Positions 1,649-49,348 of a stretch of DNA of 64,000 nt are shown here, piece by piece (position 1 is the first letter of the stretch; the number at the start of each line of letters is the position of its first letter). The notes under the pieces were generated by a model. It was not told the origin of the DNA. It searched no databases and saw only the letters and a program-made list of their open reading frames with translations. The stretch comes from Actinomycetota bacterium. Lineage in GTDB: Bacteria; Actinomycetota; Actinomycetes; S36-B12; UBA10799. A program made the position numbers and the translations under genes. The stretch spans positions 555 through 64,554 of the forward strand of contig JACJWU010000008.1 in NCBI GenBank assembly GCA_020636995.1, read 5' to 3'.

Positions 1649-2617
1649 TCAGACCAGCACGAAGGCGCCGCGGACGTCACCGGCTTCGAGACGTTCCATT
1701 GCGCGCGGGGCCTCGGACAGTGGCAGCGTCTCGAACTGCGTGCGGACGCCGGCCTGGGGCACCAGGGCCAGGAAGTCCCGCACGTCGGCGCGGGTCACAT
1801 TGGCCACCGAGCGCAGGCTGCGTTCCCACCACAGATCGTCGTAGTTCAACTGCGGGATCCGGTCGAGGTGGATGGCGTTGATCGCGACAGGGGCGCCGCG
1901 GTCGACGGACTTCAGGGCAGCCACGACGACATCGCCGCTCGGGGCGAACGTCACAGCGGCGTCCAGCGGGACCGGAACCTGCTCGTCGTAGGTGCCGGCC
2001 CACACCGCCCCGAGGTCGCGCGCACGTTCGGCTTCCGCGGGCGAGCGTGTCACCACATAGCTCTCACAGCCCCAGTAGTTGGCCACCTGGATAGCGATTG
2101 TTGCCGAGGCCCCGAACCCGAAGAGGCCCAGACGCTTGCCCGCCGAATCGGCGCCGATGCCGGCCACCCGCAGGCTGCGGAAGCCGATGACCCCGCCGCA
2201 CAACAGGGGGGCGATCTCGGCCGGGTCGCCCTCGGGAAGTGGGTGCACGAAATCGGCGTGCGCGGTGACGAGTCCGGCATGGCCGCCATCGATGTCGTAG
2301 CCGGTGAACTTGGCGTGTTCGCAGAGGTTCTCCCGGTCGCTTCGGCAGAAACGACAGGCGCCGCACGAGTGAGCCAGCCACACCAGCCCGACACGGCGTC
2401 CCTGCAACGGGCCTTCGGACAGGACTTCGCCGACGACCTGGTGCCCCGGGATAAGCGGCAATCGGTGCGGCGGCAGATCCCCGTGCAGGATCTGCAGATC
2501 GGTGCGGCACACTGCCGACGCCTCCACCCGGATGAGGACCTCGCCGGGTCCGGGCTGCGGGTCGGGCCTTTCCTCGACGGTCAGGTGATCGACGGCGGTC
2601 ATCGTGGCGGCGTACAT
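1649..2617 (-). CDS. Zinc-binding alcohol dehydrogenase (AdhP-like MDR family)
   Basis: VCRTD, GHQVVG, structural Zn motif CGACRFCRSDRENLC, GLFGFG nucleotide-binding motif. Confidence 0.9.
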   Translation of the reverse strand: MYAATMTAVDHLTVEERPDPQPGPGEVLIRVEASAVCRTDLQILHGDLPPHRLPLIPGHQVVGEVLSEGPLQGRRVGLVWLAHSCGACRFCRSDRENLCEHAKFTGYDIDGGHAGLVTAHADFVHPLPEGDPAEIAPLLCGGVIGFRSLRVAGIGADSAGKRLGLFGFGASATIAIQVANYWGCESYVVTRSPAEAERARDLGAVWAGTYDEQVPVPLDAAVTFAPSGDVVVAALKSVDRGAPVAINAIHLDRIPQLNYDDLWWERSLRSVANVTRADVRDFLALVPQAGVRTQFETLPLSEAPRAMERLEAGDVRGAFVLV

Positions 2618-2646
2618 GGTGCCAGTGTGCCCCCGGACAGCGCGCG

Positions 2647-2894
2647 GTGACGGTTGAGCCCGGTTGGGGATTGCCGCGTGACGGTCGAGCCGGGTTGGGG
2701 ATCGGCCTGTGACGGTCGAGCCGGGTTGGGGATCGGCCTGTGACGGTCGAGCCGGGTTGGGGATCGGCCTGTGACGGTCGAGCCCGGTTGGGGATCGGCC
2801 TGTGACGGTCGAGCCGGGTTGGGGATCGGCCTGTGACGGTCGAGCCCGGTTAGGGATCGGCCTGTGACGGTCGAGCCCGGTTAGAGATCGGCAT
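2647..2894. repeat. Tandem array of 8 x 31-bp units (GTGACGGTCGAGCC(C/G)GGTTGGGGATCGGCCT); the last unit merges into palindromic element A1
   Basis: Units start at 2647, 2678, 2709, 2740, 2771, 2802, 2833 and 2864; no unique spacers. Confidence 0.95.
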
Positions 2895-2989
2895 CTTGGT
2901 TAGTCGGCGGCTGGTTGGTTAGAGTCCCACGGCCGTATAGGACTAACCGGAGTGCCGTGTCTCTAACCAGGATGCCGATCTCTAACCGG
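2877..2989. repeat. Nested palindromic REP/MITE-like element family A, copy 1 (113 bp)
   Basis: Terminal inverted repeat CCGGTTAGAGATCGGCATC...GATGCCGATCTCTAACCGG; three GGTTAG on the left, three CTAACC on the right; central GTCCCACGGCCGTA. Confidence 0.95.
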
Positions 2990-3030
2990 AGTGCCGTACG
3001 GCGCCCGCGGAGTTCACACGACTTGCCGCG

Positions 3031-3089: not shown

Positions 3090-3998
3090 GTGTTCCGTAG
3101 ATCAGATCTCGCCTCATCAGGAGCCTCCCGCGCCCAGATCGACCAGCTCTGCAAGGAGTCCGAAAGACTCCGACGAGACGTCTGGATCGCCAAGGACATG
3201 GACCCCTGGGAGCGGCACGATGTGTTGGCGGGGGTGGTGTTGTCCGACCTGCAGCCGAGCGCGATGCTGACCGGTCCCACCGCCGCCTACCTACTCGGCC
3301 TGCCCCGCCCGAAGGTGCCTCCGGGGCAGATCTTTGTCCGCGGTGTTCCGCGCGGCGCGTATGGGGACGATGTGAAGGTGCTCGGCGGCGCGGCCCCGAT
3401 GACGATCCGTGACGGCGTGCGCATGGCCGACCCTGCGGTGGTGGTGGCGGACTGTGCTCGATGCCTGTCGGCACGGGACAGCTTGGCCATCGCCGATGCG
3501 GCAACCCACCAGCGCATGTGTGGTGTCGATGACCTTGCGGATGTCGCCGAGTCCTTCCACGGAAGACACGGTGTACGCCGGGTCGCATGGCTTGCCGAAA
3601 ACGTCGATCCGGCGGCCGAATCGCCGGGCGAGACCTGGACCTGCATCGTCCTGACGATGCTGGGCTATGCTCCGACATCCCAGGTGGTGGTTCGTGATGC
3701 GGGCAGGACCGCACGGGTTGACTTCCTCTTGGAGGATGGCCGCACCATTGTCGAGTTCGATGGGCTGATCAAGTATCAGACATCGGCGGCGACCGAAGTG
3801 AACAGCGAGAAGGACCGGCAAGCCTGGCTGGAATCTCTCGGCTACGTCGTGGTGCGGGTTCTGTGGAAGCATCTGGCTGATCCCGAGACCCTTGCCGCCC
3901 GGCTGGCTCGCCTTGGTGCGGTGCCTACAGGCAAGCCGATGGTGCTTCCCGCTGGCTGGCACCTGGTGGATCCCGTTAGAGATCGGCATCTTGGTTAG
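3090..3998 (+). CDS. AbiEi-like / DUF559 (Vsr-like PD-(D/E)XK) endonuclease-domain protein
   Basis: Motifs AESPGET, RVDF, VEFDGLIKY and EKDRQAWLESLGYVVVRVLW. The ORF is open from 2991, but GTG 3090 has a -10-like AACACT 6 nt upstream. The stop codon lies inside element A2. Confidence 0.8.
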   Translation: MFRRSDLASSGASRAQIDQLCKESERLRRDVWIAKDMDPWERHDVLAGVVLSDLQPSAMLTGPTAAYLLGLPRPKVPPGQIFVRGVPRGAYGDDVKVLGGAAPMTIRDGVRMADPAVVVADCARCLSARDSLAIADAATHQRMCGVDDLADVAESFHGRHGVRRVAWLAENVDPAAESPGETWTCIVLTMLGYAPTSQVVVRDAGRTARVDFLLEDGRTIVEFDGLIKYQTSAATEVNSEKDRQAWLESLGYVVVRVLWKHLADPETLAARLARLGAVPTGKPMVLPAGWHLVDPVRDRHLG

Positions 3999-4103
3999 TC
4001 GGCGGCTGGTTGGTTAGAGTCCCACGGCCGTATAGGGCTAACCGGAGTGCTGTATGTCTAACCAGGGTGCCGATCTCTAACCAGGCTGCCGATCTCTAAC
4101 CGG
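3973..4103. repeat. Family A palindromic element, copy 2, with a duplicated right arm
   Basis: Same sequence and orientation as copy 1, plus an extra 19-bp GCTGCCGATCTCTAACCGG at the right end. Confidence 0.95.
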
Positions 4104-4117
4104 AGTGCCCCGGGCTC

Positions 4118-21266: not shown

Positions 21267-21393
21267 CGCCGGTGTGCCGCGCCCGGGCTGTGGATGAGCG
21301 CCGCCGTGGGACGTGCGTGGGGTGGATGGAGTGTCCAGGGAGGGTGGTCAGGTAGCTCCGGTTGATGGGTGGTCGCTGCGCCTGGTGATGGGT

Positions 21394-21483
21394 GGAGATC
21401 CAGGCCCGTGGTCAGCCCGGTGTCGGTCAGGATCTCCGTGGGCAGTCCGGTTACGGTCAGGATCCCCGTGGGCAGCCCGGTTA
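21394..21483. repeat. Degenerate ~30-bp tandem units abutting the left end of element A3
   Basis: CGGTCAGGATCTCCGTGGGCAGTCCGGTTA (21424) and CGGTCAGGATCCCCGTGGGCAGCCCGGTTA (21454), plus a more degenerate unit at 21394. Confidence 0.75.
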
Positions 21484-21589
21484 GAGATCGGCATGTTGGT
21501 TAGTCGGCGGCATCTTGGTTAGAGTCCCACGGCCGTACAGGGCTAACCGGAGTGCTGTTTCTCTAACCGGGATGCCGATCTCTAACCGG
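21477..21589. repeat. Family A palindromic element, copy 3 (113 bp)
   Basis: Same terminal inverted repeats and core as A1, same orientation. Confidence 0.95.
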
Positions 21590-21659
21590 AGTGTCGCCGA
21601 TTAACCGGACCCGCCCCTCGCCATTGCCGCGGAGCCCGCGGGCACTCGAGTCCGGCACG

Positions 21660-21772: not shown

Positions 21773-21849
21773 AGTGCCGGCGCCAGCCCGTACCGTGACC
21801 AACCTGTCTGGACAGAACAACTGGCGTGCCGGATCCTGGACGGCCGGCG

Positions 21850-34494: not shown

Positions 34495-34626
34495 CGTACG
34501 GAACCGGTTGGCGAAGGCCGATTGCCAACCAGTTCCAGACACTAATCCGTTCGAAATGCCCCTTTTGTCGACCTCCAGCCGTACGGAACTGGTTGGAGCG
34601 GACCGGCCGTCAACCAGTTCTGTACG
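34495..34626. repeat. REP doublet family B (CGTACGGAACTGGTTG...CAACCAGTTC), copy 1
   Basis: Two hairpins starting at 34495 and 34580. Confidence 0.85.
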
Positions 34627-34747
34627 TTCGCGGGCTGGCAACACACGGGAGGACCGGTAACCGGACGGCCCCGCCCGCATTCCAGTTTGGGCCCGCTTGT
34701 GAAATCGGTAGCATGGAGATCCCGGCCCTATGACGAAACGGTGACAG

Positions 34748-48490: not shown

Positions 48491-49138
48491 CTAGTGGGTA
48501 TCTGCGCGGGTCGTTCGACGGCTGCCTTCCACCGCGAGGAGGCTGCCGGTCACGAACACTGCGACCACATTGGTGAGGATGATCGGTACGTCCGGACGGA
48601 AGATGCCGTACGAGAGCCAGAGCAACTGTCCTGTGAGCAGGAGGCCGAGCGTGGCGAGCGAGACCTCGGACGGCAGTCCGGCGCGCCGACGGCTCAGCGA
48701 CTCGACCAGTTGCGGCACGGTGGTCAGCAATCCGCACGTGACCCCGATACTGGCGGACACCCCGGCCGGCAGCTGCAGCAGGAGGGCCACGATCGCCGCG
48801 GCCACCAGTGCGGGGACTGCGATCGCCGCCGGCCAGGGCCATGCCCGCTGCCTGACCAGCAGGAGCATGACGACCGGCAGCGTCGTGCTCAGGAACGGGA
48901 TGTTTCCGACGATGATGCCCGGGGCCTGCACGAGCAGTCCGTACGCGAACCAACTGGCACCGGACAGCGCGAAGATCATCCAGGTCAGCAGGCTCACTCC
49001 CGCTGCGCTGCGGTCGCGCAGGATGCGGGCGATCTGCGGCAACGACATCGACGTCATCAGCACCGAACCCGCGTACGCGAGCCACTCGACGTTCACCGCC
49101 CTCACGATACTGATGGGGCGAGGCCCGGTCCCGCTCAT
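48491..49138 (-). CDS. Two-repeat PQ-loop / SWEET-like transporter
   Basis: LPQ...S..GVS...W..YG...N occurs twice, with an intervening TM helix. Confidence 0.75.
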   Translation of the reverse strand: MSGTGPRPISIVRAVNVEWLAYAGSVLMTSMSLPQIARILRDRSAAGVSLLTWMIFALSGASWFAYGLLVQAPGIIVGNIPFLSTTLPVVMLLLVRQRAWPWPAAIAVPALVAAAIVALLLQLPAGVSASIGVTCGLLTTVPQLVESLSRRRAGLPSEVSLATLGLLLTGQLLWLSYGIFRPDVPIILTNVVAVFVTGSLLAVEGSRRTTRADTH

Positions 49139-49231
49139 GCGTGTCCATGCCGGCCAGCCACGGCCCGCGGCATTGCCCGGTCCCGCTCATGCGTGCCCAT
49201 GCCGCCAGCGCGGCCCGCGGCATTGCCCGGT
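49124..49231. repeat. Tandem duplication (52 and 50 bp) abutting the left end of element A5
   Basis: CCCGGTCCCGCTCATGCGTG...GGCCCGCGGCATTG at 49124 and 49176; includes the PQ-loop start codon. Confidence 0.85.
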
Positions 49232-49235
49232 TGTT

Positions 49236-49348
49236 CCGGTTAGAGATCGGCATCTTGGTTAGTCGGCGGCAGGTTGGTTAGAGTCCCACGGCCGTATAGG
49301 ACTAACGGGAGTGCTGTATGTCTAACCGAGATGCCGATCTCTAACCGG
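49236..49348. repeat. Family A palindromic element, copy 5 (113 bp)
   Basis: Same terminal inverted repeats and core, same orientation. Confidence 0.95.

Follow-up and report, generated by a model that had tools for sequence, protein, structure and literature searches.

The array described here lies upstream of an alcohol dehydrogenase gene in the genome of a wastewater actinobacterium, within the 64,000-nt stretch of DNA that we analysed (the window). Its neighbours are the FUSC, ADH, DUF559 and Sua5 genes. The start of the zinc-type alcohol dehydrogenase (ADH) gene, with orthologues of 75–86% identity in 11 sister species, is located 29 nt from the array, which adds 217 bp between this gene and its former upstream DNA. 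The DUF559/AbiEi-like gene, divergent from ADH and about 200 bp from the array, is bracketed by two copies (A1 and A2) of a palindromic element termed family A, and it is the only DUF559 gene bracketed in this way. A hexamer reading CA(C/G)ACT or AAGACT is found 6–7 nt before the ADH start codon throughout the genus (2618–2634 in the window; loci L002–L012). This conserved hexamer suggests a leaderless-type promoter, and with the promoter positioned by the −10-like motif, unit 1 of the array would overlap the presumed −35 region of the ADH gene. A consensus promoter scan of the locus detected no sigma-70-type site. The coordinates are collected in Table 1.

Table 1. Features of the array locus and of two further arrays at family A ends, in positions of the window
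Feature	Position	Strand	Basis
Zinc-type alcohol dehydrogenase (ADH) gene	1649..2617	-	Pfam ADH_N, 9.6e-24
CACACT, −10-like hexamer, 6 nt upstream of the ADH ATG	2624..2629	-	Conserved in sister species; putative function
31-bp × 8 tandem array (minisatellite)	2647..2894	.	TRF, printed units, same in independent assemblies
Unit 1, distal, most degenerate	2647..2677	.	7 differences from unit 8, 5–6 from the remaining units
Units 2–6, homogenised interior (2, 3, 4 and 6 with GCCGGG...TGGGG; 5 keeps CCC)	2678..2832	.	Unit alignment; shared-word depths of ~3x and ~4x
Unit 7, intermediate state (TAGGG, GGCCT)	2833..2863	.	Unit alignment
Flank part of unit 8, 13 nt (GTGACGGTCGAGC), unique to the locus	2864..2876	.	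Exact copies only within the array
Family A palindromic element A1	2877..2998	+	Inverted repeat I4, 27-nt arms (2877-2903 vs 2963-2989), 96% complementary
DUF559/AbiEi-like gene	3090..3998	+	Pfam DUF559, 1e-4
Family A element A2, direct copy of A1	3974..4111	+	93% over 120 nt, blastn
Second foot-anchored array, 30 bp × 2.6, left end of A3 (21479-21593)	21405..21483	.	TRF, sequence
Third array, 52 bp × 2.1, ending 6 nt before the left end of A5 (49235-49348)	49123..49231	.	TRF, boundary scan

TRF called a repeat of period 31 at 2647–2892 (7.9 copies, 94% matches, score 408), and a separate repeat search in the window found the 31-bp spacing across the whole array. The eight units are arranged head-to-tail, each composed of 13 nt of local flank and the first 18 nt of the family A left arm. 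This composition had been proposed in a preliminary description of the DNA, and both the register and the start of the inverted-repeat arm at position 2877 agree with it, the arm part of unit 8 occupying 2877–2894. Unit 1 reads GTGACGGTTGAGCCCGGTTGGGGATTGCCGC, units 2, 3, 4 and 6 all read GTGACGGTCGAGCCGGGTTGGGGATCGGCCT, and unit 5 has the latter sequence except for one base (CCC). Unit 7 (...CCCGGTTAGGGATCGGCCT) carries TAGGG, and unit 8 (...CCCGGTTAGAGATCGGCAT; TAGAG...GGCAT) runs on, in register, into element A1. The core changes toward the distal end from TAGAG (unit 8) via TAGGG (unit 7) to TGGGG (units 1–6); the alignment of the units bears out this series and the greatest degeneration of unit 1, as originally noticed. 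Units 1–7 differ from unit 8 at 7, 4, 4, 4, 3, 4 and 2 positions, respectively. Divergence from unit 8 increases with distance (Spearman rho 0.81, exact permutation p 0.019), a real gradient that is not strictly monotonic because unit 5 sits among the G-type units.

The 13-nt segment is identical in units 2–8, and unit 1 is one base off. The 13-mer has seven exact copies, all within the array and none elsewhere in the 2.99-Mb genome. We rejected the idea that the 13-mer itself is family A sequence, as 534 of 5,000 shuffles aligned locally with the family's conserved left extension at least as well. Being unique and without significant likeness to the family extension, the segment can therefore be called local flank. 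The array alone folds no better than shuffled sequences (z 0.0).

Because the genome is a metagenome-assembled genome of 17 contigs with 91.5% completeness, we checked whether the array could be an artefact. An independently assembled JGI contig (Ga0116152_10077436) contains the eight units, identical base for base, as do the ENA assemblies ERZ28655237 and ERZ28655853, so that the same eight units are present in four independent assemblies. For a depth check, we used the Logan unitigs (k = 31) of 12 runs on activated sludge or wastewater, with dates from 2015 to 2025. The single-copy junctions round unit 5 and across units 6, 7 and 8 are present in all 12 runs at approximately single-copy depth, and words expected three and four times have depths of 2.3–3.1x and 2.9–4.4x, respectively, relative to the single-copy words of the array. 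One MEGAHIT contig (ERZ27309230) has five units only (unit 1, two G-type units, unit 7 and unit 8) with flanks otherwise identical to the window, and identical units are not countable in short-read graphs below k of about 62. The five-unit path is, however, what bubble-popping between G-type units and unit 5, together with the collapse of the G loop, is expected to yield in a de Bruijn graph; we therefore regard it as probably an assembler collapse and do not count it as an allele. Its interpretation as a strain allele with 11 SNPs was discarded, all 11 lying within the array and resulting from alignment across the indel. Since four assemblies contain eight units and the depths in 12 runs fit, the array is no artefact; the objection of an assembly artefact, raised at the outset, is not upheld and retains a negligible probability, whether for the array itself or for its unit number.

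At short-read resolution, the array looks fixed in the sampled population, with eight units and no visible instability; slippage today is therefore slow or selected against. One wastewater run (X3) contains minor unitig variants with differences of one or two bases over units 6–8 (2824–2882) beside the reference form, which is strain-level sequence variation within the array and not copy-number variation.

Family A consists of hairpins of about 110–140 nt made of 19-bp GGTTAG units, with about 80–86 copies in the genome. As single-stranded DNA, A1 is predicted to fold into a hairpin of −42.1 kcal/mol for the top strand (z −8.2) and −39.3 kcal/mol for the bottom strand (z −7.6). The arms of the family are asymmetric: three 19-bp units that differ from one another make up the left arm in 63 of 80 copies, and the right arm has 3–8 near-identical units (for instance, window 2943–2998, 4038–4109 and 21543–21593) and therefore behaves as a 19-bp variable repeat. 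Family A has 48 matches in this species, one congener has five weak matches, and 39 other relatives have none; judged by these matches, family A is essentially confined to this species. A pattern scan for three GGTTAG repeats in all species' genomes identified a related family only in one Candidatus Nanopelagicales MAG, and pattern matches in other phyla turned out to be unrelated 19-bp repeats. Family A units also occur at 2226–2353 (GGTTAGAGATCGGCATCC × 3.3) of JAGQTO010000317.1, a 2.4-kb contig of the 'Mycobacterium sp.' MAG HKST-UBA35, which probably belongs to this organism or to a close relative and was mis-binned.

A conserved shell surrounds about 20–33 of the 80 family A copies, with ...AGGTTGGTCAC...GTCAGGATCTGTCTGGACAGTCC on the left and GATGACCACC...GTGACCAACCTGTCTGGACAG on the right; in the window it is seen at 21300–21478 and 21780–21815. 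The reverse translation of the shell resembles a decayed 3' end of an IS481-type transposase (TNGNVERFQRTL...VTNLPGQ). Profile rve_3 scored E = 0.087 and 0.49 against the flanks of family A, which hints weakly at an IS481-like origin of the conserved flanks. An intact master copy, or an intact transposase matching the element flanks, was not found in the genome. The RAYT profile (Y1/HUH transposase, PF01797) had no match in the 91.5%-complete genome, with positive controls in 6 of 14 genomes, and an Rfam search of the locus returned nothing.

The preliminary description had proposed a comparison of orthologous loci, and in all 11 sister species the 31-bp array is absent from the orthologous Sua5–ADH spacer. 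Six of these species have Sua5 directly followed by ADH with a spacer of 30–100 nt, and one congener contains a different palindrome in this spacer. The missing array in the sister species indicates that it is young and species-specific, and, since the units contain element-derived sequence, it must have arisen after the arrival of the element. Three of the 11 sister species (G004, G006 and G001) have a DUF559 gene at the orthologous site; it evolves fast, with 48–52% identity compared with 75–86% for ADH. Two of the three DUF559-bearing congeners have their own 19-bp-unit palindromes. Such palindromes of differing sequence (CCGTTAGTCC, GTTCCCGTTCGG and CCGTTGGAG) were observed in the Sua5–ADH spacers of L002, L006 and L007, and a GGTTAGAGG palindrome resides in the ADH–FUSC spacer of G007 (L012), downstream of the ADH orthologue.

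The substitutions distinguishing the units are nested. A22G and A30C are common to units 2–7, A20G to units 1–6, and C15G to units 2, 3, 4 and 6, and none of the four occurs in the element. Three of the changes fall in the arm, at +4 and +6 (A to G) and at +14 (A to C); true family members conserve these positions in 78, 68 and 71 of 80 copies, respectively. As the derived changes are common to the units but not to the element, the units have been copied from array units; growth templated by the element would need the same changes independently up to six times, which makes unit-to-unit copying the parsimonious reading. Polar growth by nicking and extension on the element, one of the two routes originally suggested, is contradicted by these nested changes. 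The polarity noticed at that time holds as a gradient with position but not as a sign of element-templated array growth. The gradient is better described, on the alignment, by one end held by the conserved element, internal homogenisation and a decaying edge unit: the most derived variant was amplified in the interior, and the two edge units stayed apart. We read unit 5 as left among the G-type units by a multi-unit slip or exchange. In an array of the sister species G003, the interior is homogeneous and the unit beside the true arm differs. Three of the four derived substitutions extend G runs (window 2678–2832), and the amplified variant has GGGTTGGGG every 31 nt; the longer G runs could reflect GC-biased decay or a G-tract structure feeding more slippage.

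Is the position of the array beside a hairpin particular to this locus? We collected the 21 non-coding arrays of period 21–70 bp in this genome and scored an array as foot-anchored when an inverted repeat (arms of at least 12 nt, at most one mismatch) had its outer arm start at −25 to +15 nt of the array end. Such an inverted-repeat foot is found at 14 of the 21 minisatellites, compared with 11.6% of random non-coding sites (P = 4e-9), the non-coding background being a crude ORF mask of our own. When the windows were shifted by 60, 120 and 180 nt, only 3, 1 and 2 of the 21 arrays scored. The notion that comparable arrays might be equally frequent away from element ends, which would have spoken against a link with the element, is thus not supported. 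The arm start falls within the last unit in nine of the 14 foot-anchored arrays. The minimum free energy of 100-nt flanks had been tried as a hairpin detector and abandoned for lack of discrimination in favour of the explicit inverted-repeat search.

The same design recurs beside palindromes other than family A, with units of flank plus the first 9–12 nt of an arm. By eye, the array C12:34496 (34496–34666; 35 bp × 4.9) combines about 26 nt of flank with GGGCAGCAG, the start of another palindrome family, and C12:301061 (301061–301168; 36 bp × 3) combines flank with ATTGTGACGT, the start of a third. In the sister species G003 (800 kb), which is devoid of family A, five of six arrays are foot-anchored, with 2, 0 and 1 in the shifted windows. 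One of them (31 bp × 5) consists of 22 nt of flank and the first 9 nt of the species' own GTTGGAG palindrome, and another (31 bp × 3.3) starts with the last 10 nt of a TTTTGTGAAGAAG palindrome. Roughly 73–89% of the 14-mers of foot-anchored arrays occur nowhere else in the genome, an array of a dispersed 61-bp family excepted; the arrays therefore arose locally and were not spread as parts of mobile elements. The arrays of 31–36 bp units made of flank and an arm end (the first or last 9–12 nt) also include C12:93490–93664 and, in G003, those at C1:729951–730105 and 405200–405300.

Arrays with units other than 19 bp are located at 4 of 80 left ends of family A (31 × 7.9, 52 × 2.1, 30 × 2.6 and 20 × 3.3) and at none of the 80 right ends, a difference that is not significant. 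The enrichment at family A ends has P = 0.0017 against the whole genome and about 0.03 against the crude non-coding mask, and is probably not significant against true intergenic DNA. The unit of the array at A3 is not random flank but the family-conserved left extension (26 of 30 positions identical to the consensus); this extension, GTCAGGATCTG, is present at 33 of the 80 copies. With respect to the direction of replication deduced from GC skew, the arrays have no preferred side (14 are co-directional and 7 opposite, p 0.19).

We consider it probable that hairpin-provoked slippage seeded the array at the foot of family A and that internal slippage expanded it, yielding a repeat with no detectable function that is probably neutral. 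A replicating polymerase would stall at the stem or a few bases inside it, here 18 nt in; the nascent 3' end would slip back by about 31 nt and copy the 13 nt of flank and the 18 nt of arm once more, producing the first duplication. Later growth proceeded by copying array units rather than the element, as the substitutions show. Copies outside the real hairpin lost the three family-conserved bases (A to G or A to C), and the most derived variant then amplified inside. Repeated duplication at the element boundary, the original proposal, is sustained by the arm sequence carried in the units, the empty sites in the sister species and the generality of the hairpin-foot link. Between the two routes then offered, hairpin-driven slippage gains from this link (14 of 21 arrays here and five of six in G003), and nick-and-extend synthesis loses because units were copied from units. 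Replication arrest and a backward slip would be the trigger. In the Viguera, Canceill and Ehrlich model, as summarised in PMC4134008, a polymerase that meets a hairpin in its template pauses at the hairpin base or within the stem, dissociates and misaligns. The proposed trigger fits this established behaviour on hairpin templates as well as the tandem clusters of REPINs with their flanks (PMC3116915). The weak enrichment at family A ends, the lack of a GC-skew bias and the absence of visible present-day instability count against slippage, and we recognised no microhomology at the outer array boundary.

Three other origins deserve weighing against hairpin-provoked slippage. The array could be a variant of the arm repeats in which the hairpin has no role: a 31-mer derived from a double unit of 19 + 20 bp by loss of about 8 bp, or from a 19-bp unit by gain of 12 bp, would have multiplied by unequal exchange, like the 19-bp units of the right arm. 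Family A right arms do range from three to eight units, 79 of the 124 non-coding arrays have a period of 19–20 bp, there are arrays with double (39-bp) and triple (58-bp) units, and ACGG...CCGGTTAG in the unit is loosely like the ACGGCACTCCGGTTAG unit type. We nevertheless judge this origin unlikely, as the 13-mer is unique with no significant likeness to family A, left arms are constant with their three unlike units in 63 of 80 copies, and foot-anchored arrays beside other palindrome families would be left unexplained. A selected function appears less probable still. The eight phased GGTT(A/G)G(A/G)GATCGG motifs might serve as a docking array for a protein, or the array as a spacer or insulator for the ADH and DUF559 promoters, in keeping with its location in a divergent promoter region where unit 1 overlaps the presumed ADH −35, the constant copy number in all samples, and a 31-bp spacing close to three helical turns. 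Yet the units have lost exactly those bases most conserved in true family A members, all sister species lack the array and their ADH genes keep the −10-like motif, and comparable arrays stand at hairpin feet in unrelated contexts.

Enzyme-driven polar growth, in which a structure- or sequence-specific nuclease nicks the element end and local re-synthesis adds units beside the element, is in our estimate very improbable. The array does adjoin the only DUF559 gene bracketed by family A copies, flank-containing arrays occur at 4/80 left and 0/80 right ends, and the element-proximal unit is the most element-like. The left/right difference is not significant, however, and the common derived substitutions testify to copying from unit to unit, not to templating by the element. 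Neither a RAYT/Y1 transposase nor an intact transposase matching the element flanks was found in the genome. Candidates for the enzyme would be the DUF559/Vsr-like protein encoded 200 bp away, with GGTTAGAG units as its putative nick target, or a lost transposase. Moreover, the same design stands beside sequence-unrelated palindromes and in a sister species without family A, and a generic process is therefore favoured. It is likewise hardly probable that foot-anchored arrays are products of an enzyme instead of passive traces of slippage. On this reading, a structure-specific enzyme would incise extruded or single-stranded hairpins a short, fixed way into the stem and prime re-synthesis there; one candidate would be a nuclease of the Vsr/DUF559 type, for example the one encoded between the family A copies here. 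If true, a stem-cutting enzyme would represent a previously undescribed source of tandem arrays at palindrome ends, and could also explain the growth of these 19-bp-unit palindromes.

With direct repeats, a unit within about 10–100 bp, a non-coding location and descent from unit to unit, the array is a minisatellite whose strain-level variability is unproven. Its homogeneous interior and divergent edges (unit 1 and units 7/8) are likewise features of minisatellites or VNTRs. The MIRU-VNTRs of Mycobacterium are intergenic minisatellites of a dispersed family with 40–100 bp units, often in operon spacers, which have reading-frame constraints and are polymorphic between strains. Our array resembles them as an actinobacterial intergenic minisatellite with tens of bp per unit; its 31-bp unit, however, is locus-specific, the 13-mer being found nowhere else and only arm-derived words recurring. 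The BIME-2 elements of E. coli are intergenic tandem arrays of the REP palindromic family with variable motif numbers, and BIME units are complete palindromic units in alternating orientation. The units here, in contrast, are all direct, partial-arm copies, and the array alone has no fold above shuffles. A periodicity of about 30 bp, a degenerate terminal unit and an apparent polarity are reminiscent of CRISPR, but the 13-nt 'spacer' is not variable, the units descend from one another and there are no cas genes nearby.

In Pseudomonas fluorescens SBW25, REPIN clusters contain the palindromic element and its flanks head-to-tail more commonly than expected by chance (Bertels and Rainey 2011, PMC3116915), from which the authors infer a second mechanism separate from transposition (PMC3116915). 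Both there and here, a dispersed palindromic element is repeated together with flanking sequence. The SBW25 unit, however, is a whole REPIN with both flanks, hundreds of bp in 2–4 copies and in the presence of RAYTs (PMC3116915), whereas here 18 nt of one arm of an approximately 120-nt element and 13 nt of flank are repeated eight times in a genome without RAYT; the array is not a member of the REP/REPIN-RAYT class. Hairpin slippage according to Canceill, Viguera and Ehrlich (summarised in PMC4134008) predicts rearrangement end points at the hairpin foot, as observed here; the duplication counterpart is Trinh and Sinden 1993, cited in PMC4134008. What the experimental systems mostly record is the deletion of a hairpin that lies between direct repeats already present, whereas our case would be a backward slip (duplication) that kept the hairpin, in natural and fixed arrays.

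On its own, the array is a small and probably neutral repeat, and it looks like an ordinary product of copying slippage of a kind that recurs next to hairpins throughout the genome. The interest lies mostly in the genome-wide pattern of two species and less in this locus, which is the clearest example of a statistically supported pattern: in this actinobacterium and one sister species, the majority of intergenic minisatellites start at the outer foot of a hairpin repeat and include the first 7–18 nt of the stem. If the pattern is wide, such arrays would be natural footprints of replication stalling on hairpins, and palindromic elements would remodel promoter regions through them. For annotators, the array is a caution against seeing CRISPR-like polarity where a conserved element merely keeps one end of a gradient constant.

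Two minor observations concern the repeats of this genome more generally. A period of 19 or 20 was found in 79 of its 124 non-coding tandem arrays, which fall into several sequence-unrelated families (for example, GGTTAGAGATCGGCA and CCGATGGGGTTCAGGTAGA). Contig k141_307051 of the ENA assembly ERZ27309060 contains at 1100–1310 a family A copy, non-identical to A1, which joins the end of contig C2, adjoining a Pyr_redox_2 gene, to the DUF559 locus; this join reflects either chimeric assembly through the repeat or recombination between two family A copies.
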